DNA of 60,740 bases from Minisyncoccota bacterium (GCA_041663185.1 JBAZQY010000003.1:1-60740), one strand, 5' to 3'. Positions 8,569 through 29,347 are shown, numbered from the stretch's first letter. Notes: generated from the sequence alone by a model not told the origin. Numbers and translations: made by a program.

Positions 8569-8618
8569 AATTTTATGAGTCGTGTCGGAGCCCTTTAGGG
8601 TAAAGCGCGAATAAAATT
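8569..8618. repeat. Hairpin element, core family A (copy 1, degenerate arms)
   Basis: Core cgtgtcggagccctttagggtaaagcg at 8581-8607, one mismatch to the cores at 9633 and 29305. Confidence 0.85.
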
Positions 8619-8647
8619 GATATGCCACAACCTATTTCATTCACTAT

Positions 8648-9595
8648 TTATCTCATACTCTCCCACTTCGCAAATATACCACAAGGAAGTAACCTTTCGC
8701 TATCACTTTCTTCAATAGCTAGCTCACCAATCTCTATCTGCCCTTTATAATCTTTCATCATTTCCTTTAAATTATTCTCGTAAACAATCGGGGAATATCC
8801 GGCCGTATACCCATTAATTAAAACAAAAAGAGGTTTATCGGAAAGTAACCCTCGGCATAATTTCATTAATTCTAAAAAATTCTCTTCGATTTTCCAAAGT
8901 TCATCATGTGGCCCATGCCCAAAAGACGGTGGGTCCATTATTATAGCGTCATATTTTCTTCCCCTTTTCACTTCTCTTTTAAGAAAAGAAATAACGTCAT
9001 CAACAATCCATCTGATTGGGGCATCTTCTAGCCCCGACAATTTTGCATTCTCTTTGGCCCATTCTACTGCAGTTTTGGACCCGTCAACATGACAAACTTC
9101 CGCCCCAGCTTTAGCGCAAGCAAGAGTCGCTCCGCCTGTATAAGCAAATAAATTCAAAACTGATATTTTTTTAGAGGCAGAATTCCTAAACAATTTTTCA
9201 TGGTCTGGCCCCTCGTCCTCCCTCGTCCGAGGACCTGACAAATTGTTTAGGAATTCTGCCTTTTTAATTATTTCCTCCATCCATTTCCAATTAGGAAGTT
9301 GTTCAGGAAAAAGACCAGTATGCTTGAAGGATGATGGTTTAATTGAAAAATTTAAATCGCCATATGAAATATTCCAACTTTTAGGAATACCATTTTTCAC
9401 AATCCATTTCGTCTTGGTACCCTCACGTACAAATTTTAATTCAGCTTTTTCCCATATTAAAGAATCTTTTGATTTCTCCCAAAGAGCTTCGGGATCAGGA
9501 CGTCTTAAAAAATAAGAACCATATCGTTCTAACTTTTCTCCATTACCCGAATCAATTAACTCGTATTCTTTTTGTTTTGCTGTTTTTAAAATCAT
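8648..9595 (-). CDS. Class I SAM-dependent methyltransferase (RlmI/RlmK-like), with an in-frame palindromic insert
   Basis: HTGLFPEQ, VLNLFAYTGGAT, HVDGSK, DAIIMDPPSFG. Confidence 0.9.
   Translation of the reverse strand: MILKTAKQKEYELIDSGNGEKLERYGSYFLRRPDPEALWEKSKDSLIWEKAELKFVREGTKTKWIVKNGIPKSWNISYGDLNFSIKPSSFKHTGLFPEQLPNWKWMEEIIKKAEFLNNLSGPRTREDEGPDHEKLFRNSASKKISVLNLFAYTGGATLACAKAGAEVCHVDGSKTAVEWAKENAKLSGLEDAPIRWIVDDVISFLKREVKRGRKYDAIIMDPPSFGHGPHDELWKIEENFLELMKLCRGLLSDKPLFVLINGYTAGYSPIVYENNLKEMMKDYKGQIEIGELAIEESDSERLLPCGIFAKWESMR
9175..9261. repeat. 87-bp palindromic element inserted in frame in the methyltransferase
   Basis: Perfect 22-bp inverted arms aggcagaattcctaaacaattt / aaattgtttaggaattctgcct; GC-rich loop. 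Confidence 0.9.
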
Positions 9596-9603
9596 ATTTG
9601 CCT

Positions 9604-9687
9604 AGATCTGCATGATCATTAAAATTTTTATCCGTGTCGGAGCCCTTTAGGGTTAAGCGGGAAAAATTTTAATGATTATGCAGATCT
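9604..9687. repeat. Hairpin element, core family A (copy 2)
   Basis: ~26-bp near-perfect arms (agatctgcatgatcattaaaattttt) around core 9633-9659. Confidence 0.9.
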
Positions 9688-9690
9688 TCC

Positions 9691-10608
9691 TTATTTTAAA
9701 TAATTATCTATATTGCGCTTATGTTCTGTATAAGTTGTTGCAAAATGCACTTTACCATTTTTATCATGAAGATAATAGAGGTAAGATGAAGTGTTAGGAT
9801 AAATTGCCGCATTAATTGATTGTAACCCTGGATTATTAAGTGGTTTAGCTGGTAATCCTTTCTCTTGATAAGTTGATTTATCAATATCCACTTGAAGAGG
9901 CATACCAATAGAAATTCTTTTCCATAAAATTCCAGAAATTATTTCAATATCTTCTTTCCCCCCTGCTTCACCTTCCAAAATTGAGGCCATTGTTATAATT
10001 TCATTTAAGCTATACTGACTTGCATTTATCGATGGTAAAAGATTTTTAATTTGATTTTCAAAACTATTTGTCAATTTATCAACAATCTCTCTTCCTGTAT
10101 CTAATGGAAAGAAAAAATAAGTATCCGGGAATAAATATCCCTGTTTAGCTTTTTCATTTGTTAAAAATAAATCTTTTCGAAATCCCGCTAATTTATCCGC
10201 TAGTAAATCTGCTATTTCTTCATTGGTTAAACCTTCACGAATAGTTACTTTGATAGGTTCAATATTGTGATGCCCTCGACTAAGTTGCCAAGCGATAACC
10301 CAAACAGGTGAATTTTTTTTAATCAAATAATCCCCAGTAATTATACCTTTCCCTGATTTAAGTAATTTAATAAAAACCTTTAAAGCAAGATCATGCCTGA
10401 CGGCATTCTTAGTTTCTAATTCTTCGGTAACAGAATTAATTGATTGGCCAGAAGCCACGTGGATAATAATATCTTTATTGGAAAATGGTGCTGACAAAAA
10501 GTAATAAGCAAACAAACCCAAAAAACCAATAATTAAAATCAGGTTAGGAATTAACTTAATAATTTTTCTTGTTGAAGGCAAATTTGTGCCAGTGTTATTC
10601 TCATCCAT
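9691..10608 (-). CDS. mltG: Endolytic transglycosylase MltG
   Basis: N-terminal TM helix, TIREG, GYLFPDTY, MASILEGE, GMPLQVD, LNNPG, YLYYLHD. Confidence 0.92.
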   Translation of the reverse strand: MDENNTGTNLPSTRKIIKLIPNLILIIGFLGLFAYYFLSAPFSNKDIIIHVASGQSINSVTEELETKNAVRHDLALKVFIKLLKSGKGIITGDYLIKKNSPVWVIAWQLSRGHHNIEPIKVTIREGLTNEEIADLLADKLAGFRKDLFLTNEKAKQGYLFPDTYFFFPLDTGREIVDKLTNSFENQIKNLLPSINASQYSLNEIITMASILEGEAGGKEDIEIISGILWKRISIGMPLQVDIDKSTYQEKGLPAKPLNNPGLQSINAAIYPNTSSYLYYLHDKNGKVHFATTYTEHKRNIDNYLK

Positions 10609-10617
10609 AGACGTAAA

Positions 10618-11916
10618 CTATATAGGTAAATTGGAAGGTGGTTTGGCAATCTTTGATTCGATACGCTTGAAACTTGGTGTCTCTGAGACCATACCTGGGA
10701 AATGAAATAGGGTGGCTAATTCTTCATTCGAAAGAACAAAAATTTGCGGTTTACCTGAAGGGAAAAACATATTAAAGACTGCTGGATATTTTACCGCATA
10801 TTGAATAGGTGGATGGAAGAAAGTCCTCATTCGATAAAAATTAAGCATACGTTTTTTGAGTTTAGTTAAAGCCAGTCCGGTTGGGTCAGACCAGGGTGCA
10901 TCGAACTGAGTAGGACTAATACGATTTAATTCATTTGAATATGGTTGAGCAAATTGACGAAACACCAGACGAGAGTTACGCCTGAGATTATTAAATTGAT
11001 CTTCTGAAATTAATTTTTTATCTGATAGTGTCACAAGTCGAATTCCACAATCAAAGTGAATCTGTTGTAAATTTATAACCATCTGTTTGATTATCGGATC
11101 AAGGAAACTTGGAGCACGAACTTCGAGAGAATTCCCTCCACCAAGACCTTGCCCCACTCCGACTTTGGTATATGGTTTAAGAAGGTCTTTGATGTGTTCT
11201 TCAGCAAAAGTATCAAAGTTTACATGTTTACCTGTAGCATGACTGTGATACTTTTTGATACTTTGTCGAATAACAATTTGAATCCACATTTGTTGACCTT
11301 TAGCGAGAGAGCCCATAAATTCAATAGTCGGAGTTAGTGGATCAATTTTATATTCTTCTTTTGTTCCAGATTTTAATTCATCAATTTGTTTATAAGTTCT
11401 AAATGGTTGGACATCGTGCTTTAATTTAGTAAATTCACATCCCCAGACGTTCCAATCTCCATCTTTGGTATATTGAGGAACATTTAGAGTATAATCTTCT
11501 GACTCGACAACTTTGGCTTGTGGATATTGAGCATAGATTTGTGTCTCGACTAAATCTCTAATACGTGATGGTGTTCGAACAAAAAAACGAACTCGTCCAT
11601 CAATCGAAACAATTTCAAGTGAAAACCAAAGCCAAGGGGCACCGATCATGAACTCTTCCCAGAACCCTTTTATACTTTTATGATAAAAAGCGTTCGAGAA
11701 AATAAGTTCCATCGCTGCTGGAGTTTTGATAACTTCACGAGGAACTTGAATTTCAAGTAAAACCCATTTGATACCCATAATAAAACGTTCTTGTCGGTAA
11801 TGATGCCAAAAATGAAAAGCAACATAAGCCAAAGGAATCGGCATCAAATAACCTATTGCCACAATAAGAAACTGGATTAAATTGAAATTATGAGTATTTA
11901 AAAAATCTTGTATCAT
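10618..11916 (-). CDS. Conserved CPR-type membrane-anchored hypothetical protein
   Basis: N-terminal TM, LLEIQVPRE, FSLEIVS, QIYAQYP, EELATLFHFP, C-terminal PPSNLP. Resembles from memory the N-terminal region found with CPR VirD4/TraG-like ATPases. Confidence 0.55.
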   Translation of the reverse strand: MIQDFLNTHNFNLIQFLIVAIGYLMPIPLAYVAFHFWHHYRQERFIMGIKWVLLEIQVPREVIKTPAAMELIFSNAFYHKSIKGFWEEFMIGAPWLWFSLEIVSIDGRVRFFVRTPSRIRDLVETQIYAQYPQAKVVESEDYTLNVPQYTKDGDWNVWGCEFTKLKHDVQPFRTYKQIDELKSGTKEEYKIDPLTPTIEFMGSLAKGQQMWIQIVIRQSIKKYHSHATGKHVNFDTFAEEHIKDLLKPYTKVGVGQGLGGGNSLEVRAPSFLDPIIKQMVINLQQIHFDCGIRLVTLSDKKLISEDQFNNLRRNSRLVFRQFAQPYSNELNRISPTQFDAPWSDPTGLALTKLKKRMLNFYRMRTFFHPPIQYAVKYPAVFNMFFPSGKPQIFVLSNEELATLFHFPGMVSETPSFKRIESKIAKPPSNLPI

Positions 11917-11922
11917 ATAATA

Positions 11923-12012
11923 TTATGATCTAGTGAAAAAGCCAATCAAAATAGCAATAATAATAAAACCTGCTACAATGATAATAATATTTACAATGAA
12001 ACCTTTCTGCAT
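11923..12012 (-). CDS. 29-aa membrane peptide (MQKGFIVNIIIIVAGFIIIAILIGFFTRS)
   Basis: Hand-translated; extended -10 TGATATAAT 8 nt upstream; ends 6 nt before the next gene. Confidence 0.55.
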   Translation of the reverse strand: MQKGFIVNIIIIVAGFIIIAILIGFFTRS

Positions 12013-12067
12013 ACCATTTTATTATATCATATCCAAAAGAAAATCCCGACAACTGTCGGGATTTTCT

Positions 12068-13099
12068 TTAAGCTATAGTGTAAAGACCAGCTTTATTCTT
12101 TTTAAAATATTTAGAGTTTTGAAGATTAACTAAAATTGTGTTCTTTTTTAGATATCTTTCTTTCATTACTTGATCAATGATATCTTCTTTTTTCATTGGA
12201 CCATTTTTCTTCAAAAGTTCTTTGATAACATCTCGGACTACGCCAGTTTTATAACCCCATTCAGACAAAGCATAAATACCTCGGCCAACAAGGACAAATC
12301 TAGGATCTTTAATGAGTTCGTTGTGACAAGTCGCTACATGACATTTCTTGTCGAAAGTATTCGCAACTGCTTTTGCCACTTCTCGAAAATGCATTGGGCT
12401 ACCATGTTTCCTCATCATTAAGAAAGCGTAATCCTTGACTCCGCGAGTTTTGATAGAAGATGATGTTGACTTTCCCCATTCGCCAAGTGGATTCTTATTA
12501 ATCTTCTTTGACATTGAAAGCCAGCGTTTAGCAATTTCTTCATTCTTGTATTCTTCAGATAAATCTTTGACTTCTTCAAGAAATCGAGAAATAAGTTCTG
12601 CTTCAGAAACTAATTCATCGTCAGAAAGATTTTCAAAAAGATTTTTTAATGATTTATGAATTTGTTCAGCGATATCAGCATCAACACTCCAACGAGTCTT
12701 AAAGTGATCATCTTCTTTGTGTTTTATAAAATCATCTCCTAGAGTGAGATATAAATGAATGTGATTCTGGGTTAATTTGTCTTTAGAAAAATGATTGAGT
12801 AATTCTTGTTCTTCAACTACAGCACCAAGAGTGTGCATTAACTTTTTTAATTCTTCGAAAACCTGCTTTTCATTTTTAAAAGTTTCTGATTTACGAATAA
12901 AGCCAAGGGCTGAATTTTCTATTTGGCGAACACGCTCACGAGTGATCCCGTATTTTTGACCAATTGCTTCTAATGTTTTGCGTTGAACATCATCAGTGAT
13001 GCCGAAACGATTAACTATCACTTCATAAGCACGAGGTGATAGACCTGAGAGCATACGCTTGGTAACTTGTTTTGGTTTAAATGAAACTGTGCTTGTCAT
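12068..13099 (-). CDS. Sigma-70 region-4-like HTH + HARE-HTH (RNAP delta-like) DNA-binding protein
   Basis: TLEAIGQKYGITRERVRQIE; PMHFREVA...HNELIKDPRFVLVGRGIYALSEWG. Confidence 0.8.
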   Translation of the reverse strand: MTSTVSFKPKQVTKRMLSGLSPRAYEVIVNRFGITDDVQRKTLEAIGQKYGITRERVRQIENSALGFIRKSETFKNEKQVFEELKKLMHTLGAVVEEQELLNHFSKDKLTQNHIHLYLTLGDDFIKHKEDDHFKTRWSVDADIAEQIHKSLKNLFENLSDDELVSEAELISRFLEEVKDLSEEYKNEEIAKRWLSMSKKINKNPLGEWGKSTSSSIKTRGVKDYAFLMMRKHGSPMHFREVAKAVANTFDKKCHVATCHNELIKDPRFVLVGRGIYALSEWGYKTGVVRDVIKELLKKNGPMKKEDIIDQVMKERYLKKNTILVNLQNSKYFKKNKAGLYTIA

Positions 13100-13141
13100 T
13101 TGAATTAAAAAATTAATCTACTAATTTAACTTACTGGTACC

Positions 13142-13170
13142 ATAATATCATTACTATTAAATAAAGTCAA
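13142..13170 (-). promoter_or_regulatory. Sigma70-type promoter
   Basis: TTGACT-17 bp-TATTAT, with an extended TG. Confidence 0.65.
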
Positions 13171-13191
13171 CTAAATTTACAGCACATAATT

Positions 13192-15015
13192 TTAACCTTG
13201 TAAAATATCGCTTTTTTTCGGTGATTTAGATTTTGACCTATCCATTTCTGTTAATAACTTTTTTCTCAAACGGACACTTTTGGGGGTAATTTCTAGATAT
13301 TCATCGTCAGCCATAACTTCAAGACCGCGTTCAATTGAGAGTTTATAGGGGGGCTTCACATTTATCGCTTCATCAGTACCCGATGAGCGCATGTTTGAAA
13401 GTTGTTTACTTTTTGTTGGATTCACAGCAAGTTCATCCCCCTTTATAACATTCCCAATAACCATACCTTCGTAAACTTCATCTCCATGTTCTACATATAA
13501 AGTTCCACGTTCTTGAAGCGTCCAGAGAGAGAATGCTATAACCTTACCAGTTACTATTGAAGTCATCGAGCCAACATCTCGTTTTTTGATTTCTCCAGCA
13601 TAATTTTTAAATCCGATAAATCGTGAGGCTAAAATTCCTTCACCTTTTGTATCGACAACAAATTGCCCTCGATACCCAAGAAGTCCACGTGTCGGTATCT
13701 CTATCAACATTCGTACAATTCCTTCTTTCTCATGCATACTTGTAATCATCCCTCTGCGAGCAGTTAATTTTTCAATAACTGCACCAGAATATTCATTGCG
13801 AACATCAATAGTTGCTTCTTCGTATGGTTCCAACTTTTCACCATTTTCTTCTTTGATGATTACATGTGGCTGAGAAACTTGCAGTTCATATCCTTCACGT
13901 CGCATATTCTCAAGTAAAACCGCGATGTGCAATTCGCCACGGCCATAAACAAGAAATCCTTCTTGAACTTCTTCGTCGTCAGGAGTATCGAAATTTATTC
14001 TAAGTCCAACATTCATTTCAAGTTCTTTCTCGAGTCTTTCTCGTATTTGACGACTTGTGACATATTTACCTTCGCGCCCACAAAAAGGAGAATCGTTGAC
14101 TAAAAAGTTTAGCGAAATAGTTGGCTCGTCAATATCAATAGATGGTAAAGGTAGAGTATTTGGATTATCACATATTGTCTCACCAATATATACATCTGGA
14201 ATACCCGCAATCAGTGCAATATCTCCAGTATTGAGTTCGGTTACTTCCTTTCTATTAATTCCTTCGAATGTGAACATTTTAGAAATTTTTGCATTTCTCA
14301 TTTTTCCACTTGAATCTTTTACAATAATCTTAGAGCTTGTTTTTATTGATCCCGAATATGCACGAACAATGGCAAGGCGTCCCATAAAATTGTCATAGCC
14401 CAGATTGAAAACTTGAGCACGAAATGGATCATCTTTGTTAATTGATGCTTCTTTAACTTCAGCAAGAATTAAATCAAATAAGGGGGTAAGGTCTTTTGAT
14501 TCATCCTCTAAATGAAGCTTGGCAATTCCTTGTCTACTGATGGCATACAAATATTTAAAATCAATTTGTTCTTGTGTTGCTCCAAGTTCCAAGAAAAGTT
14601 CTAAAATCTCATCGTGAACTCGATCAGGATTTGCTGCGGGCTTATCTATTTTATTTATGACAACAATTGGTTTAAGACCAAGCTCAAGTGACTTTTTTAA
14701 AACGAAACGAGTTTGAGGCATTGGACCTTCCTGAGCATCAACAAGTAATAAAACTGAGTCAATCGCCCGAAGAACTCGCTCCACTTCCGAACCAAAATCC
14801 GCGTGGCCTGGAGTATCGACAATATTTATTTTCGTTCCCTTATAAACAACCGAAGTGTTTTTGGAATATATAGTAATACCCCGCTCAAGTTCAAGAGCGT
14901 TTGAATCCATCGTGACCCCTTCTTCCACCATTCCGCACTGCTTCATCATCTGGTCAGTCAAAGTGGTCTTCCCATGGTCCACGTGTGCTATTATTGCTAT
15001 ATTTCTAATTTCCAT
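13192..15015 (-). CDS. typA: Translational GTPase TypA/BipA
   Basis: AHVDHGKTT, ERGITI, DTPGHADF, NKID, GRGELH, LEITPKSVRLRK. Confidence 0.98.
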   Translation of the reverse strand: MEIRNIAIIAHVDHGKTTLTDQMMKQCGMVEEGVTMDSNALELERGITIYSKNTSVVYKGTKINIVDTPGHADFGSEVERVLRAIDSVLLLVDAQEGPMPQTRFVLKKSLELGLKPIVVINKIDKPAANPDRVHDEILELFLELGATQEQIDFKYLYAISRQGIAKLHLEDESKDLTPLFDLILAEVKEASINKDDPFRAQVFNLGYDNFMGRLAIVRAYSGSIKTSSKIIVKDSSGKMRNAKISKMFTFEGINRKEVTELNTGDIALIAGIPDVYIGETICDNPNTLPLPSIDIDEPTISLNFLVNDSPFCGREGKYVTSRQIRERLEKELEMNVGLRINFDTPDDEEVQEGFLVYGRGELHIAVLLENMRREGYELQVSQPHVIIKEENGEKLEPYEEATIDVRNEYSGAVIEKLTARRGMITSMHEKEGIVRMLIEIPTRGLLGYRGQFVVDTKGEGILASRFIGFKNYAGEIKKRDVGSMTSIVTGKVIAFSLWTLQERGTLYVEHGDEVYEGMVIGNVIKGDELAVNPTKSKQLSNMRSSGTDEAINVKPPYKLSIERGLEVMADDEYLEITPKSVRLRKKLLTEMDRSKSKSPKKSDILQG

Positions 15016-15176
15016 TATATTAATACGTCTGATTAAATAATAAGTTATAATTTAGATAAATCACTTCGCGCCCCGTATAAAACTTTATATGCATTCGATT
15101 TAAAGTTTTTGTACTGGGGTTGCTATACTTGTCCCGTAGCGAGCTTTGCTCTGCTACTGGGATTTCTAATTTCCAT
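15016..15176. repeat. 161-bp hairpin-rich segment with a duplicated typA 5' end
   Basis: 15-bp direct repeat at 15001-15015 and 15162-15176; two hairpins with CCCAGTA...TACGGG termini. Confidence 0.7.
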
Positions 15177-15252
15177 AAAATAAAAACGCCCCGAGGCGAA
15201 AAACTATTTGTATAATATCATATATTTTGTAAATTGTAAAACATACAAATAT

Positions 15253-15283
15253 AAAAGGGAGAGTCAAGATTGAGACCCTCCCT
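15253..15283 (-). terminator. Intrinsic terminator
   Basis: agggag-ggtc...gact-ctccct followed by a U-tract on the minus strand. Confidence 0.6.
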
Positions 15284-15576
15284 TATTTAATGTAAATGTT
15301 TGATATCGTTAATTGGGGAAATCTAAAAAATAATCTTTCAACTGAATATCCCAATCCTATATAAAACAAAATGATATCATCCCGTGTAATTTTCTTATCG
15401 ATAAATTTTCTTTCTATTTGATTTACATCGATAACGCCAATATCAACAAGATGATATAGCAACTCATTAGAAATAAATCGTTGCGTTTTATTCTCATCGA
15501 TTATTGTTTCAAGTTCACGTCCAAGAACCATTACCATAATCTTAGTTCCCGGTTTCAAATTTTTTATCTCTTCCAT
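15283..15576 (-). CDS. Hypothetical protein
   Basis: ORF with own terminator; start moved to MEEIKNL (15576). Confidence 0.6.
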   Translation of the reverse strand: MEEIKNLKPGTKIMVMVLGRELETIIDENKTQRFISNELLYHLVDIGVIDVNQIERKFIDKKITRDDIILFYIGLGYSVERLFFRFPQLTISNIYIK

Positions 15577-15826
15577 AATTAAGATTTTCTTCACCCTACC
15601 ACCATAAATAAAATCTGTCAAACTAAATTTAATAATAAAAAACTGGCTCACCAAAATTGGAAGCCAGCCATTATTCATTCAATATTTTTTGAATCTTCTT
15701 TCTTGGTAGCATTGCGAGCTATCATTATTCCAGATTCAGTGATTTAAAATGGAACTTACTCCTCGTTCAGAACCACCCCTCATCACTTCATTATAGTATA
15801 TCATATTTACTATACTTTGTCAATAC

Positions 15827-16933
15827 CTATAAAAGCTTTACAATATCGTGATAAGTTATGACAACCATCAGAACCATTAACAATCCAAAACCAATCATAT
15901 TCACCACATTTGCAATTTGAGGTTTGATCCTTGAACCCTTAATTTTTTCTATCAATACAAATAAGAGTCGTCCCCCATCAAGAGCCGGGAATGGTAGTAA
16001 ATTTATAACTGCAAGATTTATAGAAATGAGTGCTGTAAATGACAACAAATAAATAAAACCAAATTCCGCTGCATCACCAACAACTCCAACAATTCCGACA
16101 GGACCAGTCAGAGTATTCATATCAGCCTGACCCAAAAGTGCATCGTGAATCAAATTATAAAACCCAACTACAGTTGCCACAAAAACATCGGCCGATAATT
16201 TCAAACCTTCCCAGACCGCCCGATGAATTGGTAATTTGAGAGTACCAATTATATCCATTGAAATACCAATCATCACACTATTACTTTTATTACTTTCTTC
16301 TGGCACAACCATGACTTCCACCTGTTCTCCTTTTCGAATTAACGAAATTGTTACTTCCTCACCACTATGAGCTTTGATGAATGATTGGACGGTTGAAGCA
16401 GAAAAATTAGAAGATAAAAGTTTTGTTGAATCAGTGCTTGTTTCAAGCGATAAAATTTTATCACCAGTTTTAATTCCGCCAACTTCAGCTGGAGAATCAG
16501 GTAATACGCTTGTAATCGTCAAAGCTTGATTATTCACAATTGCTCCTTTGGGAACACTGCCGACAGAAGTTGGGAGCCCTGAAATAAATCCGACAGAAAA
16601 AAGAAGCCAGGCCACTAAAAAATTCATCAAGACACCTGCCAATAAAACTCCGGCTTGGATATACCTTGGTTTGTTTACAAAACTTCTTTTGCTATCTGGA
16701 CCATTGATCGAATCTTCATCTGGATTTTCTCCAAAAATTTTCACATACCCTCCAAACGGCAAAGCATTAAAATTATAAGTTGTCTCTCCAATTTTTTTCC
16801 CAAAAAGTTTCGGCGGAAAACCAAAAGAAAATTCATCGACACGTATACCTGACTTCTTGGCAACAAAAAAATGCCCAAATTCATGGGAGATAACTAGAAC
16901 CAATAAAATTACAAGAAAAATTAATATATTCAT
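15827..16933 (-). CDS. rseP: RIP metalloprotease RseP (M50, PDZ)
   Basis: HEFGH, LPFGGYVKI, PDZ segment, NLLPFPALDGG. Confidence 0.96.
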   Translation of the reverse strand: MNILIFLVILLVLVISHEFGHFFVAKKSGIRVDEFSFGFPPKLFGKKIGETTYNFNALPFGGYVKIFGENPDEDSINGPDSKRSFVNKPRYIQAGVLLAGVLMNFLVAWLLFSVGFISGLPTSVGSVPKGAIVNNQALTITSVLPDSPAEVGGIKTGDKILSLETSTDSTKLLSSNFSASTVQSFIKAHSGEEVTISLIRKGEQVEVMVVPEESNKSNSVMIGISMDIIGTLKLPIHRAVWEGLKLSADVFVATVVGFYNLIHDALLGQADMNTLTGPVGIVGVVGDAAEFGFIYLLSFTALISINLAVINLLPFPALDGGRLLFVLIEKIKGSRIKPQIANVVNMIGFGLLMVLMVVITYHDIVKLL

Positions 16934-16936
16934 TTT

Positions 16937-17470: not shown

Positions 17471-17555
17471 ATATATATTCTACTATATAAATGTATTTTT
17501 AAAAAGCGCTGAGATTAAGACAATATTAAAATAAATATAAATAAAACAAAAAATA

Positions 17556-18209: not shown

Positions 18210-18217
18210 ATAACAAT

Positions 18218-19656: not shown

Positions 19657-19663
19657 ATATTCT

Positions 19664-19690: not shown

Positions 19691-19704
19691 TCTTAATAAA
19701 TAAT

Positions 19705-20289: not shown

Positions 20290-20325
20290 ATTTTTATTAT
20301 ATATTAATTTAATCTAAAATCATTT

Positions 20326-20352
20326 TCTCCGCTAGGACTTTCCTAGCGGAGA
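20326..20352. repeat. REP-like 27-bp palindrome, copy 2
   Basis: Identical to copy 1; abuts the RAYT stop codon. Confidence 0.95.
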
Positions 20353-21009: not shown

Positions 21010-21030
21010 GTTTATATTATATAACAATAT

Positions 21031-21057
21031 TCTCCGCTAGGAAAGTCCTAGCGGAGA
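21031..21057. repeat. REP-like 27-bp palindrome, copy 3 (opposite orientation)
   Basis: tctccgctagga-aag-tcctagcggaga, the reverse complement of copies 1 and 2. Confidence 0.95.
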
Positions 21058-21068
21058 ATTCATAAATG

Positions 21069-21953
21069 CTATTGTACCTCAATTTCAAAAATATCCGAAA
21101 GCTCATCTGAATAATAAAATTCATGGCCCAAATCACCAAAAGTATATTCCGTATTATTTATATTAATCACTGCTCCACCAATTAATGGATTTTCCTTTGG
21201 AACTGAGTAATAAAAACCAAGGTTGTAAAGGGTTGATAATATTCCTGCATTTTTACTTATGTCATAGCCTGACGCTTCCCACTGAGCAATAATTTCTTTC
21301 ATATAAAGACCAACATATAAATAGGAGTAGTAGGGGTCTTTCGCATTGGTTATTCTATTCATTCTTTCCACTTCAATGTTTACCCCATCTTTATAATCAA
21401 CAATATGCTCCATCTCAGGACCTAGATAAAATGGCGAATCTATATCTTTTAAATTATTTTCAATAATACTGACTGTTTTAGGTTTTAATCCGGCTATCCC
21501 AAAAGAAGTATTTGATAGAGAGGCTAAAATTTTTAGTGGTTCAAAATAATTTTTAAAAGATTCCCTTCTATTTCCAAAAAATCGAAACTGCTCACCAATT
21601 ACTCCACTTAATATTAATCTTGGAGAAATTTGTGCGTCCCTACCAGCTTTTTTTATAATTTCTTGATCGCGAGTAAAAACTTCTTTCATAAGATTCCACT
21701 CGTCTGTATTTGCCCAGGGGTATGGAGAGATTTGAGGATTTAGTTTGTTTTGAATGATATCATCGTTATTATTTTTTATCCCCATTTTATTCATATTAAA
21801 ATACGAATTTCTTTCTGAAACAGAACCTTTCACGTTTAGCCAGCCATACTGCATTGCCACATAAACACCACAAAAAATAAAACCAACTAAAGCAAATCCA
21901 AACAGAAGGACGCGAAAGATATTTCGTTTTAATTTTTTAAAATTATTTATCAT
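21069..21953 (-). CDS. Membrane-anchored protein with possible lysozyme/lytic-transglycosylase-like fold
   Basis: N-terminal TM; VIGEQ, SFGIAGLKPKT and TLYNLG echo SLT motifs I-III. Confidence 0.5.
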   Translation of the reverse strand: MINNFKKLKRNIFRVLLFGFALVGFIFCGVYVAMQYGWLNVKGSVSERNSYFNMNKMGIKNNNDDIIQNKLNPQISPYPWANTDEWNLMKEVFTRDQEIIKKAGRDAQISPRLILSGVIGEQFRFFGNRRESFKNYFEPLKILASLSNTSFGIAGLKPKTVSIIENNLKDIDSPFYLGPEMEHIVDYKDGVNIEVERMNRITNAKDPYYSYLYVGLYMKEIIAQWEASGYDISKNAGILSTLYNLGFYYSVPKENPLIGGAVININNTEYTFGDLGHEFYYSDELSDIFEIEVQ

Positions 21954-22966
21954 TATTTTTTACTTAAAATACTTTTTTTATAAGTGTCTAAATGATTTAA
22001 TGCTTCCCCCGTACCCTTGGCAACACAAAGAAGTGGTTCATCGGCGACTCTGGCTTTTACTCCAGTTCGACGATAAATCAAATCGGCTAAATTACGAAGT
22101 AGAGATGATCCACCAGTCATAATAATTCCGTCATCAATAATATCAGCCGCAAGTTCTGGAGGAGTTTGTGATAAAACATCTTTAATTGCAGTAATCATTG
22201 CACGGAGTTCTTTGTCTATGGCTCTGACTATTTCATTTGTTGAAATTTGGGCTGTCCTTGGTAAACCTTGAATATAATCACGGCCTTTAATTGTAATTGT
22301 TAATTCTTCTTCAAGTGGTATTGCCGCGCCAATTTTTATTTTGATTGCTTCAGCAGTTCTATCGCCGATCGCTAAGTTAAAAGTTTTCTTTATGTAGTCG
22401 GTAATTGCCTGGTCGATTTTATCACCTGCACACTTAACGGAAGTCGAGGCCACAATTCCTCCGAGAGCGATCACTGCAATATCAGTCGTCCCACCACCAA
22501 TATCCATAATCATATATCCACGTGAATCTTGAATATGAACACCAGCTCCAATAGCAGCGAGTATTGGCTCTTTAACAACGTAAGCATTTTTTGCTCCAGC
22601 CCGGATTGCCGCTTCTACTACCGCTCGACGTTCAGTTGAGGTAATTCCTGCTGGAACCGAGACCATAACGTCTGGTTTAAATAAATTATATTTACCAAGA
22701 GTTTTACTAATGAAATATCGAAGCATCGCTTCGGTCACACGGTAATCAGCAATCACCCCATCTTTCATCGGCCGATAAACAATTATATTTTCAGGAGTTT
22801 TCCCAATCATTTCTTTAGCTTCAATACCAATGGCCATGATTGTATTATCTTGTTCAGAAACGGCTACTACTGAGGGTTCATTTAAAACAATACCCTTACC
22901 TGGAAGATACACCAAGGTATTAGCTGTGCCTAAATCTATTCCCAATTTTTTAGAAAAAATAGCCAT
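21953..22966 (-). CDS. mreB: Rod shape-determining protein MreB
   Basis: GIDLGTANT, EPSVVA, RPMKDGVIAD, DIGGGTTD, MTGGSSLL. Confidence 0.97.
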   Translation of the reverse strand: MAIFSKKLGIDLGTANTLVYLPGKGIVLNEPSVVAVSEQDNTIMAIGIEAKEMIGKTPENIIVYRPMKDGVIADYRVTEAMLRYFISKTLGKYNLFKPDVMVSVPAGITSTERRAVVEAAIRAGAKNAYVVKEPILAAIGAGVHIQDSRGYMIMDIGGGTTDIAVIALGGIVASTSVKCAGDKIDQAITDYIKKTFNLAIGDRTAEAIKIKIGAAIPLEEELTITIKGRDYIQGLPRTAQISTNEIVRAIDKELRAMITAIKDVLSQTPPELAADIIDDGIIMTGGSSLLRNLADLIYRRTGVKARVADEPLLCVAKGTGEALNHLDTYKKSILSKK

Positions 22967-23071
22967 AAATAAGTGATTACAAATCCACTATAGCATAAAA
23001 TTATAAATTTTTAAATTTATAATTTTATGCTATTAATTCTTGATTTTGTATCTATGTGATACGATATTAGT

Positions 23072-25024
23072 ATGTATATCGCGACAGTTATACCACTTAC
23101 AAAAGGAGCTTACCAGAAAGAATATCTTTCTTATTTTTCTATCAACGACATCCCACTTGGTAGCATTGTCACAATCCCGGTCAGGTCTAAAACACAAGAT
23201 GCTATTGTTATCAATATAGAAGAAGCCAGAGATATAAAATCTGATTTAAAGAATGCTGATTTTCAATTAAAAAAAATAATCAAAGTGAAAGGTGAATCAC
23301 CTTTTTCTAAAAGTTTTTTTATTGCTTGCCAAAAATTAAAAATTTATACTGTAAGTAACATCGGTGCAATTATTAAATCTCTTTTGCCTTCTATTTTTAT
23401 TGAAAATATTAGTAAATTAAAAAAATTTCCCATTCAAGAAGAATTCGAAACTGAAAACATTACACATGAGAAATTAATTTTTCAAGCAATCTTGCCTGAT
23501 CGTTTAGCTTTTTATCGAACTCTTATTCGTGAAGCTTTTGCCAAAAAAGAATCTGTTTTCATTTGTGTCCCTACTCTCTATGATATCGACCATTTTCATA
23601 AAGAATTAGCTCGTGGTATTGAACAATATGTTTTTACTTTTCATTCCGACTTAACAAAAAAAGCCTTAATTGATACATATAATTCATCCCTGCATGAAAT
23701 CCACCCAATCCTCATTATTGGAACGGGAATATTTCTTTCTAACCCTCGACACGATATTAAAACCATTATTCTTGAACATGAAAGTTCGGACGTTTACAAA
23801 CAAATAGGACGACCCTATATAGATATTCGAACTTTCGCCGAAATTTTATCTTCGATTCAAAAAACAAAATTAATTATAGGTGATACACTTTTGCGTCCGG
23901 AGACACTATACAGACATGACACGGGAGAATTCGGAGAAATAGCTTCACCATTATATCGCCTACCACAAACTGAAAATCAAATCTTAGTTGATATGAAAAA
24001 TGAAATCAGTGACACCGGTAAAAAAATTTTCAAAACAATCTCACAAACAACAAAAGAGGCCATAGATAAAACTCTAGCAAACAATAAATCAATTTTTCTA
24101 TTTTCTGTTCGTAAGGGACTTGCTCCGATCACTGTCTGTAGTGATTGTGGAAAAACTCTCTTGTGCCCTGATTGTGCTACTCCGATTGTTCTTTACGGGA
24201 CCAAGCAATTAACTGCCAATAAATCCACCACCCCAAGAATTTTTATGTGTAATAAATGTGGCCGAAAAGAAAAAACGGAAATTCGTTGCCCTCATTGCTC
24301 CAGTTGGAATTTGACTCCTCTTGGAGTTGGGACTGATAAGGTTTATGAAGAAATTATAAATTTATATCCTACAACAAAAGTTATTCAGATAGACAAAGAA
24401 GCCACTCCAACTCAAAAAGAAGCAAAAAATGCTATTGCTTTATTTAACAAAAATCCTGGCATTATTTTAATTGGAACTGAAATGGCTTTTTCTTATATAA
24501 AAGAACAAATCGATAGTAGCGCAATTATTTCCCTTGATGGACTCTTCTCTGTCCCGAGTTTTAATATTACTCAAAAAATTCTACACATTATCGAAAAATT
24601 ACATTTCATCACATTAAATAATCTAATTATTCAAACGCGTATTCCTGAAAACAAAATCTTGCAATATATTTTAAGTGGTAATGTTTTGCCTCTTTGTCGA
24701 GAAGATTTAGCGGAAAGAAAAGATTTCGGCTATCCTCCATTTAAACGGCTTATTAAAATTACCTTTGAAGGCTCAGCCTCTGATACAGAGAAAGCTCGGG
24801 CTTTCATTGAAAATATTTTAGGAAATTATGAACCACAAATATTTTCGGCGTTTGTTAGTCGTGTTAGAGGTCAGTATATTACAAATACTGTTATCAAAGT
24901 TGATCCAAAAATTTGGCCTCTGCCAACTGATGAAAAAAAATTACTAGACAATGATTTGGCTCAAAATCTCGCCAAACTTCCTCCATCATTTTCTATAAAT
25001 GTTGACCCGGAAGATTTGTTATGA
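23072..25024 (+). CDS. priA: Primosomal protein N' (PriA)-like, helicase motifs degenerate
   Basis: N-terminal 3' DNA-binding-like region, two Zn-knuckle pairs (CSDC/CPDC/CNKC/CPHC), GVGTDKV, ERKDFGYPPF; no GxTGSGKT. Confidence 0.85.
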   Translation: MYIATVIPLTKGAYQKEYLSYFSINDIPLGSIVTIPVRSKTQDAIVINIEEARDIKSDLKNADFQLKKIIKVKGESPFSKSFFIACQKLKIYTVSNIGAIIKSLLPSIFIENISKLKKFPIQEEFETENITHEKLIFQAILPDRLAFYRTLIREAFAKKESVFICVPTLYDIDHFHKELARGIEQYVFTFHSDLTKKALIDTYNSSLHEIHPILIIGTGIFLSNPRHDIKTIILEHESSDVYKQIGRPYIDIRTFAEILSSIQKTKLIIGDTLLRPETLYRHDTGEFGEIASPLYRLPQTENQILVDMKNEISDTGKKIFKTISQTTKEAIDKTLANNKSIFLFSVRKGLAPITVCSDCGKTLLCPDCATPIVLYGTKQLTANKSTTPRIFMCNKCGRKEKTEIRCPHCSSWNLTPLGVGTDKVYEEIINLYPTTKVIQIDKEATPTQKEAKNAIALFNKNPGIILIGTEMAFSYIKEQIDSSAIISLDGLFSVPSFNITQKILHIIEKLHFITLNNLIIQTRIPENKILQYILSGNVLPLCREDLAERKDFGYPPFKRLIKITFEGSASDTEKARAFIENILGNYEPQIFSAFVSRVRGQYITNTVIKVDPKIWPLPTDEKKLLDNDLAQNLAKLPPSFSINVDPEDLL

Positions 25025-25030
25025 TAATAT
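25002..25030 (+). promoter_or_regulatory. Promoter for rpsU (near-leaderless)
   Basis: TTGACC-17 bp-TAATAT, 7 nt before the ATG at 25038. Confidence 0.55.
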
Positions 25031-25037
25031 ACTGTTT

Positions 25038-25289
25038 ATGATAACAGTTATAGAAGTTAAGAAAAATGCAAATGAAAGCAATATGAATCTAATTCGTCGA
25101 TTCAGTCGCAAAGTACAAGAATCAGGAATTATTCAAAAAGTTAAAAGTAAGCGTTATAATCAAAGAACCGAGTCTAGAGTAAAAATTAAAGCTGGAACGT
25201 TAAAACGCTTAGCAAATAAAAAAAAGCAAGAAAAACTCTTTAAGCTTGGTAAAGCAACCAAAACTTTTAAAAAGAAAGGACATAGATAA
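25038..25289 (+). CDS. rpsU: 30S ribosomal protein S21
   Basis: IEVKKNANES...LIRRFSRKVQESGII...KRY; start moved to 25038. Confidence 0.85.
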   Translation: MITVIEVKKNANESNMNLIRRFSRKVQESGIIQKVKSKRYNQRTESRVKIKAGTLKRLANKKKQEKLFKLGKATKTFKKKGHR

Positions 25290-25682
25290 TTGCTTATGCT
25301 AAATACGGGTTATTGCACTATTACAAATAGAACAAAAGGGCATCTTCCACGATGCCCTTTTGAAACTATTAAAAATAAAATTTTGGGTAAAAATTATGAA
25401 TTAGGAATAATTTTTTTACCTGCCTCAAAACAAAAACAAATCAACTTAACTTACCGCGGGAAAAATGAAACGACAAATATTCTCTCTTTTCCTTTCTCAA
25501 AAACCTCTGGTGAAATTACTTTCGATTTATTGAGAGTTAAAAAAGATTCTAGTTTATTTGAGATGAGTTATCCAGAATTCTTAAAATATCTACTTATCCA
25601 CGGGTGCTTGCATTTGAAAGGTTTCGAACATAGTAGTACAATGGAGGAACAAGAAAGGAAGTATCTTAAAATGTTTTCATAG
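25290..25682 (+). CDS. ybeY: rRNA maturation RNase YbeY
   Basis: NLTYRGKNETTNILSFP, HGCLHLKGFEH. Confidence 0.92.
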   Translation: MLMLNTGYCTITNRTKGHLPRCPFETIKNKILGKNYELGIIFLPASKQKQINLTYRGKNETTNILSFPFSKTSGEITFDLLRVKKDSSLFEMSYPEFLKYLLIHGCLHLKGFEHSSTMEEQERKYLKMFS

Positions 25683-25706
25683 CCACCTTCTTTCTTCCCC
25701 CAACTC

Positions 25707-26882
25707 ATGTTAAAAAATAATTACACTTGCGGTATTGATATTGGTACACATTCTACAAAAGTCGTAGTGATGGGTTTTGATAAAGGTAAAAAAGATCCGA
25801 TGGTCCTTGCCACTGGTATCGCTGAAACAAAAGGTATGCGTTTTGGTTATATCAAAAACGTAGATGAAGTTGCCTTAAGTATCAAAAAAGCCGTTAAACA
25901 AACCGAAAATATTCTTGGGATAAAGATTCGTCAAGCTTATATTTCTGTCGGAGGAATTAGCCTTAGCTCAACGGTCTCTTCCGGTTCAGTCATCATTTCA
26001 AAAGCTGATCAAGAAATTACAAATCTGGATGTTACTAAAGCAATCGCCAACAGCGAAGAAAATCTTGATATTGTCAACAAAAAAATTATTCACAGCATCC
26101 CACTTGGTTTTAAATTAGATGGCAAAGATATCTACGTACGACCCGAAGGATTACGTGGTATCAAGCTAGAAGTTAAAACTCTTTTTATAACTTGTTTAAA
26201 GCAAAATATTGATGATCTAATAACAGCACTCGCTTTAGCTAAAATAGATATTGAAGAAATTATCGCTTCACCGCTTGTTACCGGAAATACTCTTTTAGGT
26301 AATAAACAAAAAATAGCAGGTTGTGTTCTTGTTGATATTGGAGCCGAAACTGTTGCTACTATTGTTTTTGAAAATAACTTACCTATTTCTGTTCAAGTTT
26401 TCCCTATTGGCAGTATGGATATTACAAAAGATATCGCCTTGGGTCTGAAAATTTCTCTCGAAGAAGCCGAAAGTATTAAGCTCGGGAGTGTTATTGGTGG
26501 AGATTATTCAAAGAAAAAAATTGATGAAATCATTGAAGCCCGTTTGGGAGATATATTTGAACTTGTCGGCAATCATTTGAAGCGTTTGAAGCGTAATGAA
26601 CTTTTGCCAGCAGGTATTGTGATTACAGGGGGAGGTTCTCTAATAAATAATATTACTGATATCGCGCGAGGGCAACTTAAACTTCCCGCACGAACAGAAC
26701 CAACCGATTCAACTTTTAAAAATAAATTTAAACTTCGAGATGCTTCTTGGTACACAGCACTCGGACTCGCATTATCGACTAGTGATGATTATGCTATTAA
26801 TCAATCTGATAGTTCCATCGGTGGAAATATAAAAGAAGTAAAAAGTTTCTTTAAATCTATCTTGTCTCAGCTCTTACCATAG
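25707..26882 (+). CDS. ftsA: Cell division protein FtsA
   Basis: GIDIGTHSTK, DIGAETV, ITKDIA, VITGGGS; directly upstream of ftsZ. Confidence 0.95.
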   Translation: MLKNNYTCGIDIGTHSTKVVVMGFDKGKKDPMVLATGIAETKGMRFGYIKNVDEVALSIKKAVKQTENILGIKIRQAYISVGGISLSSTVSSGSVIISKADQEITNLDVTKAIANSEENLDIVNKKIIHSIPLGFKLDGKDIYVRPEGLRGIKLEVKTLFITCLKQNIDDLITALALAKIDIEEIIASPLVTGNTLLGNKQKIAGCVLVDIGAETVATIVFENNLPISVQVFPIGSMDITKDIALGLKISLEEAESIKLGSVIGGDYSKKKIDEIIEARLGDIFELVGNHLKRLKRNELLPAGIVITGGGSLINNITDIARGQLKLPARTEPTDSTFKNKFKLRDASWYTALGLALSTSDDYAINQSDSSIGGNIKEVKSFFKSILSQLLP

Positions 26883-26995
26883 TTCTATAAGGAAATGGAA
26901 AGCATTTTTGTCAAATCTTCCCTTTTTTTTAACTTCTGGTATGATATACATACGAAAATTTATTATTAATAAAGGGCTCAAACCTTATAAATTAT

Positions 26996-28177
26996 ATGCC
27001 TAAAATAAACCCGGAGATCGAATCATTTGCAAGAATTAAAGTTATTGGTATTGGTGGTTCTGGAAAGAATGCACTCAACCATATGATTAATTCGAAAGTT
27101 CGAGGAGTTGAATTCATTGTAATGAATACCGACACTCAGGACTTACACAATTCATTAGCAGAAAAAAAAGTCCATCTAGGAAAAAATCTAACTCACGGAT
27201 TGGGAGCTGGAATGAATCCAGAAGTTGGTCGTCGCGCTGCTGAAGAAACAAAAGCCGAAATACAAGATGTCATCAAAGGAGCTGATATGGTCTTCATTGC
27301 TTGCGGTATGGGTGGAGGAACAGGAACAGGAGCCGCTCCGATTGTTGCTCAAGCGGCAAAAGAACAAGGGATACTTACTGTCGCCGTTGTTACTAAACCA
27401 TTTTCTTTTGAAGGAAATCAAAGAATGAAAATCGCAGACTTGGGTTTAGCTGATCTTGAAAAAGAAGTTGATGCAATCCTTGTTATTCCAAACGATAGAT
27501 TAATTGTTATCTCTGGTAAAGAAGTAGGATTCCGACAGGCTTTTGCAATGTGTGATGAAGTTTTGAAACAAGCCGTTGAAGGAATCTCTGAACTAATTAC
27601 AACTCCGGGAATGATTAACGTCGACTTTGCTGATATTAAAGCTGTGATGTTTGATGCTGGAAGTGCCTTGATGGGTATCGGTATTGCTGCTGGTGAAGGA
27701 CGTGCAGAAAAAGCAGCTCTTCAAGCTATCAATTCCCCACTTCTCGACCTTTCTATCTCAGGCGCAAAAGGAGTATTATTTGCAATTTCAGGTGGTGAAG
27801 ATTTAACAATTCATGAAATTCAAGAAGCGGCAAAAGTCATAACTGAATCCATCGACAAAGATGCTAAAGTTATTTTTGGAACAATTCGTGATGATAAACT
27901 CAAAAAAGGAGAAATGAAAGTTACGGTTATCGCCACAGGATTCCCTACCGATATGCCAAAGCGTTCTCTTTTCCAAATTGGCCAAAAAGCAAACGAACAA
28001 ACTGTTGCCAATTCTACTAAAGAAGAAATATTGCAGGCTGTCGTCAAAGATACCAAAAATGGTTCTTCTGATTACATGAAAAAAACTGAGAAAGAAAAAG
28101 TTGAAGATGATTTATTTATTGACGATACTGATGATTGGAGCACCGTTCCAGCATTTCTAAGACGAAATAAAAAATAG
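26996..28177 (+). CDS. ftsZ: Cell division protein FtsZ
   Basis: [20 protein letters not shown]-terminal VPAFLRR. Confidence 0.99.
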
Positions 28178-28187
28178 CAGAAAAAAG

Positions 28188-28280
28188 CAGGCTATATATA
28201 AAATTTTTTGAGTAGGTGTGGGCGCGCGCCGAGGCGAAGCCGAGGTAGGGATAAGCGAGAAAAATTTTATATATAGCCTG
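28188..28280. repeat. Hairpin element, family A-related (expanded core)
   Basis: Perfect 21-bp arms caggctatatataaaattttt; 51-nt core shares GTGTnGGnGC...TAGGGnTAAGCG with family A. Confidence 0.85.
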
Positions 28281-28343
28281 TTTTTCTATTATTATTAAGA
28301 ATTTTTTATATTATTATGACCTATTTTATGTTAGAATATCTAT

Positions 28344-29270
28344 ATGTACGATTTAATAATATTAGGGGGAGGACCAGCAGGAGCTGCAAGTGCCGTCTAC
28401 TCTGCCCGCAAGCAATTAAAAACAGCAATTATAACGAGCGAGTTTGGGGGACAATCGGTTGTTTCAGAAACAATTTATAATTGGATAGGAACACCAGAGA
28501 TTTCTGGAGCTAATTTAGCAGAAAATTTAAAAAAGCATACTCTCTATTACAAGGGGCCATTTTTGGATATTATTGAGGGTGAAAAAATAGTGGAAATTAC
28601 TAAAAATGATAATGGATTTTCTACAAAATCTGAATCAGGAAAAATATATGAGAGTAAAGCAATTTTGATTACGACAGGTAGTGGTCGTCGTAAATTAGAA
28701 GCCACCAATGCAGATACTTTTGAGCACAAAGGTATCACCTACTGTGCTTCGTGTGATGGACCAATGTTTGCCGATCAAGATGTGCTAGTGATTGGTGGAG
28801 GCAATGCCGCTTTTGAAACATCTATGCAATTAGTTGCTTATTGTAAAAGTGTAACTCTGATACACAGGAGTGAAGAATTTAGAGCCGATCAGATAACCGT
28901 AAAAAAAATTTTAGAAAATCCTAAATTCAAGACGATTACTAATGCTGAAATATTAAGAGTTGACGGCGAACAATTTGTTAGTTCACTTACATATAAAGAT
29001 AAAATTTCAGGCGGAGAAAAAACAATTCCTGCAACTGGGATATTTGTCGAAATTGGACAAACGCCTAATACAGATTTTGTAAAAAATATAGTTGAATTAG
29101 ATAAAATTGGAAAAATTGTCGTTGATCCAATGACCCAAATGTCATCAGTCCCCGGAATCTGGGCCGCTGGTGACTGTACAAACGGTAGATACCACCAAAA
29201 CAACATCGCCGCCGGCGACGCCGTCAAAGCTCTCGAAGACGCCTATATTTGGATACATAAAAATAAATAG
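28344..29270 (+). CDS. trxB: Thioredoxin reductase-like FAD/NAD(P)-dependent oxidoreductase
   Basis: GGGPAG, CASCDG, GGGNAA, GIWAAGD. Confidence 0.88.
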   Translation: MYDLIILGGGPAGAASAVYSARKQLKTAIITSEFGGQSVVSETIYNWIGTPEISGANLAENLKKHTLYYKGPFLDIIEGEKIVEITKNDNGFSTKSESGKIYESKAILITTGSGRRKLEATNADTFEHKGITYCASCDGPMFADQDVLVIGGGNAAFETSMQLVAYCKSVTLIHRSEEFRADQITVKKILENPKFKTITNAEILRVDGEQFVSSLTYKDKISGGEKTIPATGIFVEIGQTPNTDFVKNIVELDKIGKIVVDPMTQMSSVPGIWAAGDCTNGRYHQNNIAAGDAVKALEDAYIWIHKNK

Positions 29271-29287
29271 CGGTTGCCAAAAAATAA

Positions 29288-29347
29288 ACACTAAAATTAT
29301 TTTTCGTGTCGGAGCCCTTTAGGGTTAAGCGAAAATAATTTTAGTGT
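29288..29347. repeat. Hairpin element, core family A (copy 3)
   Basis: Arms acactaaaattatttt around core 29305-29331, which is identical to 9633-9659. Confidence 0.9.

Follow-up and report, generated by a model that had tools for sequence, protein, structure and literature searches.

The 60,740-nt contig JBAZQY010000003.1 (positions 1-60740) of the Minisyncoccota bacterium assembly GCA_041663185.1, hereafter the window, raises the question of what is mobile when hairpins with the same center and different arms recur at separate sites. An earlier note on this sequence had described such hairpins between 8569 and 29347, here called family A, and had proposed that the core is the mobile or recognised unit and that the arms are created or diversified at insertion, for example by inverted copying of flanking DNA. 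Comparison with related genomes showed a double pattern: the core is constant between loci with differing arms, and the arms are constant at one locus across species with a changing core. The hairpin family observed is real and is not an ordinary one; it is apparently a hitherto undescribed palindromic insertion family, ~90 bases long, of Paceibacteria in the candidate phyla radiation (CPR). We read it as a lineage-wide (Paceibacteria/Nomurabacteria) set of ~80-100-nt elements akin to the Rickettsia palindromic elements (RPEs), in which a paired scaffold holds an exchangeable core, cores are copied between hairpins, and the elements are selfish passengers, and we give this reading about an even chance of being correct.

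A hairpin family with a conserved center

The 27-nt core CGTGTCGGAGCCCTTTAGGGTTAAGCG occurs exactly at 9633-9659 and 29305-29331 of the window and with one mismatch at 8581-8607, always on the + strand, and the gapped pattern GTGTNGGNGC..AGGGNWAAGCG additionally picks up a longer variant at 28216-28257; in each case the core forms the tip of a hairpin 60-100 nt long. Since 100 shuffles of the window gave no core match, the dispersed family reported from these sites holds. The core at 8581, previously taken for a one-mismatch variant, does differ from the other window core at a single position, but it has the form GGGTAAAGCG, which predominates in the family, the window's GGGTTAAGCG being in the minority.

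Three of the window hairpins carry the 27-nt core. Copy 1 (8550-8637, + strand; arms 8550-8576 and 8611-8637, 27 nt, 93% complementary) occupies the spacer from the stop of a methyltransferase gene (8648, - strand) to the start of mnmA (8538); its arms had been called degenerate at 8569 because the wrong offset was examined. Copy 2 (9604-9687, + strand; arms 9604-9629 and 9662-9687, 26 nt, 96% complementary) separates the yceG stop (9691) from the methyltransferase start (9595). Copy 3 (29259-29376, + strand; arms 29259-29303 and 29332-29376, 45 nt, 78% complementary) lies between the convergent trxB (stop 29270) and a gene at 29378-30139 (- strand), and its arms are perfect in their inner part (29288-29303 and 29332-29347, 16 bp) and imperfect further out, to 29259 and 29376. 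The fourth hairpin, variant A2 (28183-28285, + strand; arms 28183-28208 and 28260-28285, 26 nt, 96% complementary), occupies the ftsZ-trxB spacer and, alone among the window copies, is sense to its flanking genes; its core at 28216-28257 retains GTGTGGGCGC...AGGGATAAGCG, enclosing an enlarged apical stem, and an A2-type variant also occurs within MnmA of P0081/L130. All four are intergenic and immediately follow stop codons. Their + strands fold with z-scores of -5.6 to -9.7 relative to shuffled sequence, and in three of the four the + strand is ~10 kcal/mol more stable than the - strand.

Copies were collected from one genome per GTDB species and, with a stricter pattern, from metagenome contigs (sources include the Hainich and Rifle groundwater sets), where at least 111 stretches matched. 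The scan of GTDB species representatives gave 104 loci, about two-thirds of them with long flanking inverted repeats. All of these repeat-bearing loci belong to metagenome-assembled genomes (MAGs) labelled Patescibacteria (Nomurabacteria and Paceibacterota, some labelled Saccharibacteria), and the repeat-less remainder consists of chance matches in GC-rich genomes. Both scans combined yielded at least 133 distinct copies, all of them, among the matches listed, in Patescibacteria (Paceibacteria/Nomurabacteria) MAGs or contigs, at a density of ~1 copy per 15-50 kb. A phage origin was considered and rejected, as the 24 matches of a loose core pattern in viral contigs all lacked flanking repeats and are attributable to chance. 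A covariance model of the kind suggested in the earlier note was built from 68 copies and run over ~0.5 Mb of the family's loci. It returned 76 matches of at least 56 bits, including window copies 1 (8550-8639, 78.1 bits), 2 (85.3 bits), and 3 (29274-29363, 79.3 bits), and only two weaker ones, at L070 (40.7 bits) and at the A2 hairpin of the window (28181-28289, 28.6 bits, E=0.01). Literature searches for an earlier description of such elements in CPR bacteria found none.

In the 68-sequence alignment, an invariant block, partly fixed by the search pattern, extends from the C before GTGT to AAGCG, save for the apical loop and one A/T position. The core module as a whole is ~35 nt long, GC-rich, and non-palindromic. 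The AT-rich arms around it follow a scaffold in which the outer GCAG(A/G)AT is semi-conserved, the middle is hypervariable, and the inner AAAAWTTT is conserved (inner-arm consensus GAAAAATT / AATTTTTC), and recognisable subfamilies exist. Thus, the arms do differ between loci, as had been claimed, but they are not unrelated, since 68-133 copies share this common scaffold; the AAAATT..TTT motif seen to recur beside the core is the family-wide inner-arm consensus. In the predicted fold of the core itself, a short closing helix, which includes an invariant U·G pair, is followed by an internal loop that is asymmetric (5'-GUCGGA / 3'-(A/U)AA, generalised 5'-GUNGGN / 3'-WAA) and by an apical stem-loop of variable length (CCC-UUUA-GGG, CCCG-CUUG-CGGG, or longer). 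K-turn, loop-E, and tetraloop-receptor motifs were compared by eye with the core loop; none fits cleanly and none is claimed.

RNAalifold predicted 28 pairs, 21 of which show compensatory double changes, with 92% of alignment cells pairing (66% shuffled) and a covariation score of 0.64 (0.16 shuffled; 0.13-0.15 in slid controls). In copies found by the model only, GUGU becomes GCGU (U·G to C-G) and the apical stems co-vary. All four pair types occur at the outermost and middle positions of the arms; every copy has inverted repeats, but these share only a loose consensus. Covariation alone is expected of any DNA palindrome, however, so the informative part is strand asymmetry. When the core was replaced by GAAA, the core strand was still the one on which the arms folded better in 59 of the 68 copies (mean, -4.9 kcal/mol). 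Furthermore, arm mismatches on the GTGTCGG strand were of the G·U rather than the A·C type by 117 to 28 overall, and the same asymmetry was seen in antisense copies (69:20), in sense copies (7:2), and in copies outside open reading frames (ORFs) (41:6), indicating that it tracks the element and not the host gene. Arm identity was 0.6-0.8, and ~0.9 in the PheT-site pairs L110/L242 and L111/L244, compared with 0.43-0.49 at synonymous sites. Arms better conserved than synonymous sites imply that pairing, or a dual coding-plus-pairing constraint, is under selection.

Position in genes, empty sites, and exchange of cores

Most copies lie in frame within genes and antisense to the core, which the earlier note missed. 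Among the at least 133 copies, 83 are in long ORFs antisense to the core, 8 are in sense ORFs, and 42 are outside ORFs; in the 91 intragenic copies (68%), the reading frame is kept open. The hosts are housekeeping genes, which Pfam identified as LigA (NAD-ligase), UvrA, UvrC, LeuRS, PheS, PheT, and MnmA, and further as an IleRS-like synthetase, an RluA-type pseudouridine synthase, a translational GTPase, and the CCA-adding enzyme. Two of the host proteins have additional domains in Pfam: the LeuRS of L059 (2079-5000, - strand) contains an internal NUDIX domain, and the 1,386-aa IleRS-like protein of L081 (3626-7783, + strand) carries His_Phos_1 and HD domains. The core falls in three different frames (..SRFTLKGSDT.., ..AALPASGLRHG.., and ..SPLYPQAGSDT..), and since the same nucleotides are read in all three, the conserved entity is DNA or RNA and not a peptide. 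An example of an insert-spanning peptide expected in PheT or LigA is KNSAALPASGLRHGQNFS. Filled and empty intragenic orthologues differ by 57-84 nt, always at loops or beta-hairpin turns. Intron-like removal from the mRNA is disfavoured, given that every intragenic copy is frame-open in one of the three frames.

The nearest relatives of the window usable for comparison were fen_1328 (L067 and L084), L129, and L194; the best MnmA homologue is 75% identical, and no record was found for the window TrxB product. Orthologous empty sites, which the earlier note had recommended for comparison, do exist. At the yceG-methyltransferase junction, L129 is empty and reads TAA-TT-ATG, whereas the window (9604-9687) and L084 hold the entire hairpin. 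At the methyltransferase-mnmA junction, the genes overlap in L129 and leave no spacer, while the window carries the 8550-8637 hairpin; in L084 the spacer orthologous to copy 1 is filled instead by an element of another hairpin family, family B (see below). L106 and L047 show a clean net difference of 78 nt between flanks that are 86-90% identical, the empty site being stop-AT-ATG. Both arms are missing from the two clean empty sites (that of L129 at 9604-9687 and that of the L106/L047 pair), and thus the whole hairpin is the unit that was gained or lost. Moreover, arms are no more similar to their own flanks than to the flanks of other copies, in direct or inverted orientation (p = 0.11-0.59). 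Taken together, the absence of arms at empty sites and the lack of flank similarity indicate that the arms were not copied from flanking DNA, so the origin first proposed for them does not hold. There is no clear target-site duplication at either of the two clean junctions. A flanking GYGNAG repeat was tried as a candidate duplication and rejected, being found in only ~30% of copies, with 19 of the 133 carrying it on both sides; in copies that have it, the repeat coincides with an RNAalifold-predicted symmetric 3x3 internal loop with more pairs outside it. The junction in the P0023/P0081 pair (93% amino acid identity) is unclean, with 17 nt replaced.

At several sites, different cores occupy arms that have persisted. 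At the PheT site, L110 has an A core and L242 an unrelated 34-nt core between arms that are ~90% identical, in host genes with 72% nucleotide identity overall and 51% at third codon positions. At the same site, L111 and L244 have ~2 differences per arm, with the central 16 nt of the core rewritten. At the UvrA site, the arms of L070, which has an A core, resemble those of L032, whose core is small and different, and the proteins are 92% identical. The LeuRS site holds a short-loop variant in L059, a long-loop variant in L102, and an inverted core in L083, and the core is likewise inverted at the MnmA site of L151 (a sense copy). The earlier proposal that the core is the mobile or recognised unit therefore stands in part: cores are shared between loci and are swapped, scrambled, or inverted in persisting arms, but at clean empty sites it is the whole hairpin that was gained or lost.

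Cores of other families sit in the same kind of scaffold. Within the S-adenosylmethionine-dependent methyltransferase ORF of the window (8648-9595, - strand), a hairpin at 9162-9274, in frame and ~27 aa long, has the core GGTCTGGCCCCTCGTCCTCCCTCGTCCGAGGACC at 9202-9235. This 9202-type core represents a third conserved-core family, with 8 copies in the loci examined that share the scaffold type but all differ in their arms. The methyltransferase insert is missing from L084 and L129, and L040 has a family-A copy at that protein site. Likewise, among 120 homologues each, the PheT loop also holds at least 8 other recurrent insert families, and more than 15 insert types, 13 to 62 residues in length, occur in the MnmA beta-hairpin flanked by ATGHYA and KDQSYF. 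The window MnmA has, at 8100-8160 (- strand), a GC-rich mini-hairpin of 21-27 nt, ggaacctgccacgacgcaaggcgggtt, encoding 7 residues at the tip of an NNYEL..KNYEL beta-hairpin. Insert peptides in the PheT homologues P0126-P0240 include LLQPSAGTFR, SPDAFAQSLGSSLRSATPSQKH, FLNGLAGVGDPENRGPEK, and EEYPLGGGGKIIHPG, many of them bracketed by KNS / QNFS arm peptides.

How the elements may arise and spread

The closest known system is that of the RPEs, which are short palindromic repeats located in frame in unrelated housekeeping genes, where they are translated, and also between genes, with several families per lineage and an unknown mode of movement (PMC10969869). They are ~150 bp long, and each family encodes one conserved peptide in one frame (PMC10969869). 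Family A resembles them in behaviour as a new family, lying in frame in unrelated coding genes and also between genes. It differs in being ~80-100 nt long, in being read in three frames instead of encoding a peptide in one, and in being most conserved in its center, with cores exchanged in retained arms, whereas RPEs are not known to exchange cores. Its hosts, Patescibacteria for all copies, also belong to a lineage other than Rickettsia, where RPE-1 to RPE-10 occur.

According to the reading that we prefer, the paired scaffold would enter or leave as a whole hairpin, and core modules would be copied between hairpins via shared inner-arm sequence, bringing the same core into different arms. 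A likely route would be template switching, or else recombination or repair acting on the tip, for instance once a hairpin or cruciform has been cleaved. Two known processes could contribute: SbcCD-type nucleases cut hairpin tips, which recombination then repairs, and intrastrand template switching corrects quasi-palindromes. The core may be recognised as a folded single strand by a putative trans-acting factor, and arm complementarity may be maintained by selection, by intrastrand templated (quasi-palindrome) correction, or by both. Most likely, the elements are not host genes but selfish passengers that surface loops tolerate.

Several points weigh against this account. The shared inner arms, at 8-14 bp, are short for RecA-type recombination, and at the empty sites an insertion is indistinguishable from a precise deletion. 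Near-identical arms at different loci were not found among the copies, so a recent transposition of a whole element was never caught, and neither a mobilising enzyme nor an autonomous parent element was identified in the material, which consisted of 8-kb blocks around matches. The 100% identity of the core among copies is partly a product of ascertainment, since the core pattern was used to find them, and an unbiased sample of 120 homologues at the PheT site contained 5 intact A peptides and 6 variant or decayed ones. The ~10:1 antisense bias is explained only partly by stop codons (number of stop-free frames, ~2 of the 3 on the mRNA-sense strand versus 1.0 on the core strand and 0.6 in shuffles). 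Finally, arm conservation above that of synonymous sites, together with a near-invariant core loop across many species, could reflect a host-level function instead of a selfish element. For the antisense bias, one explanation that invokes no function may lie in palindrome instability, in which copies with the stable hairpin on the lagging-strand template are preferentially deleted.

A 25-year-old curiosity of Rickettsia, in-frame palindromic insertion in essential genes, recurs at larger scale in an unrelated, genome-reduced CPR lineage. Hundreds of comparable copies, with many families competing for the same protein loops, provide tractable data on how such elements spread, and direct comparative evidence is available for the exchange of a central module in retained arms. 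CPR housekeeping proteins carry element-derived peptide, a point of importance to annotation, phylogenetics, and structure prediction, and the conserved strand-specific structural motif is open to biochemical testing.

Alternatively, the family may be part of a cassette-like system, a possibility that we regard as doubtful but worth stating. Long-lived paired arms would then serve as docking sites, and several ~35-nt core families (A, 9202-type, and PheT/MnmA-site) would be inserted, exchanged, and inverted by dedicated machinery reading one folded strand. If true, the hairpin tip would be the unit that moves, which would make this a mobile element of a new kind. There is a real chance that the layer of core exchange is something new. 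Integron attC sites provide one comparison, since they conserve structure and not sequence, are recognised as one folded strand, and allow modules to be exchanged at a fixed site. Family A is similar in having structure conserved over much of the hairpin, putative recognition of one folded strand, and module exchange at a fixed site. However, attC sites have conserved R''/R' boxes at their ends and a variable center, whereas family A is conserved centrally; attC sites flank genes and need an integrase and attI, whereas the module of family A is a 35-nt non-coding core. An attC-like GTTRRRY is present only in the minority GGGTTAAGCG variant. Hin/Gin-type switches and shufflons offer a second comparison, as repeat-flanked cores occur in both orientations at one locus (LeuRS in L083 versus L102; family B in the window versus L067), but the family-A segment is only ~35 nt and inversion is rare, with 8 of 91 intragenic copies in sense. 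REP/REPIN elements, which number dozens of copies per genome, share a GC-rich imperfect hairpin as the conserved unit and, presumably, strand-specific recognition of folded single-stranded DNA (ssDNA). They differ in that REPs are extragenic, whereas two-thirds of family A copies are intragenic, and in that REPIN arms are conserved (two inverted REPs) around a variable loop, the opposite of the layout seen here.

An ordinary miniature inverted-repeat transposable element (MITE) is an unlikely explanation. In that case, the whole hairpin would be the sole mobile unit, with a transposase binding the central core, and core swaps would be independent insertions of different families at a permissive hot spot. 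The observed presence or absence of whole hairpins, the family consensus and subfamilies of the arms, and the targeting of the same protein loops by many families are all as a MITE would have them. Like the Correia, ERIC, BOX, and RUP elements, family A is a small, non-autonomous, hairpin-forming dispersed repeat, sometimes intragenic and able to make in-frame fusions. However, the L110/L242 and L111/L244 pairs share ~90% identical locus-specific arms despite their different cores, although arms otherwise vary widely between loci, and independent insertions would not recreate such arms. By definition, MITEs also have conserved terminal inverted repeats, flanking target-site duplications, and a parent insertion sequence, whereas the termini of family A appear to be its least conserved part, the two clean junctions have no clear duplication, no parent element was found in the 8-kb blocks, and copies with identical arms at different loci were not found.

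Family A might instead be a functional structured RNA or ssDNA signal kept by the host, such as an antisense-strand RNA, an RNA-processing or stability element, or a replication or repair signal on the GTGTCGG strand; we judge this quite improbable. Strong covariation, invariant G·U pairs with a conserved asymmetric internal loop, a G·U asymmetry tied to the element strand in intergenic and sense copies as well, arms much more conserved than synonymous sites, and the position of all four window copies directly after stop codons would suit such a signal. Nevertheless, the elements are patchy at orthologous sites, which are often empty or hold other cores, and unrelated sequences replace cores without visible consequence. 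Furthermore, 62% of copies lie inside ORFs in the non-transcribed sense, covariation alone is also what any palindromic insertion would show, and there is neither an Rfam match nor a canonical terminator shape. At gathering thresholds, Rfam searches returned only four tRNAs, and in E-value mode they returned weak generic-hairpin (miRNA precursor) matches with E ~1. An intrinsic terminator, with a short GC-rich stem, a loop of 3-8 nt, and a T run downstream of a gene, was rejected as well, as the terminator scan called none of the four window elements and most family members are inside ORFs. T runs follow the long hairpin in three of the four window copies, and intergenic copies may have a secondary role as terminators.

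The model of the earlier note, insertion of the core only with arms generated by inverted copying of flanks or by strand switching, is very improbable. It would account for cores that are shared while arms differ between loci, for an A-rich stretch resembling the inner 5' arm at some empty sites (PheS in L111 and UvrA in L112), and for net inserts of 57-63 nt at some sites, which would fit a core plus one arm. However, an A-rich resemblance is what lysine/asparagine-rich loops should give in AT-rich genomes, neither arm is present at the two cleanest empty sites, arm-flank similarity shows no excess in any orientation, and the arms have a family-wide scaffold consensus. Least credible is drive without transposition, in which the core would be an uptake-signal-like or conversion-favoured sequence that transformation and biased gene conversion spread between genomes and loci. 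In its favour, competence machinery is present in CPR bacteria, the identical core occurs in many species with saturated synonymous sites, and variant types are mixed within ortholog groups and partly correlated with genome, but known uptake signals need no hairpin scaffold, strand-specific folding, or ~35-nt structured module, and their density is far above that of family A.

Other hairpins and palindromes

Family B hairpins are located at 49688-49806 and 57292-57415 of the window, at 5540-5665 of L084, and at 764-860 of L067. They have a conserved core of ~85 nt (GCTCTTC...CGCCGTCGCG...AAGAC) that comprises two sub-hairpins with compensatory changes, and their arms are locus-specific; searches of Rfam gave no match for this family. 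At the 49.7-kb site, the family-B core is opposite in orientation in the window and in L067, and L067 has an additional A copy there.

Landing sites appear to be shared in intergenic spacers, too: the site of a family-A copy in L211 (~1415) is occupied in L030 by an unrelated GC-rich element, ..CCTCCTCCTCCGAAAGGAGGAGAGG.., at 5955-6069. Three further structures were seen in the window. At 22990-23033, two divergent genes are separated by an AT-rich palindrome, perfect over 21 bp and with a spacer of 2 nt, that resembles a core-less arm scaffold. Upstream of the ORF at 35468, a hairpin at 35344-35417 has a non-palindromic core of 26 nt, gatcaatcccctacttctttccgttg, enclosed by arms of 24 bp (96% complementary). 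Within the ORF at 52295-53227, a perfect 20-bp GC-rich palindrome, CCACCAGTCGGACTGGTGGC / GCCACCAGTCCGACTGGTGG, lies at 52589-52630.

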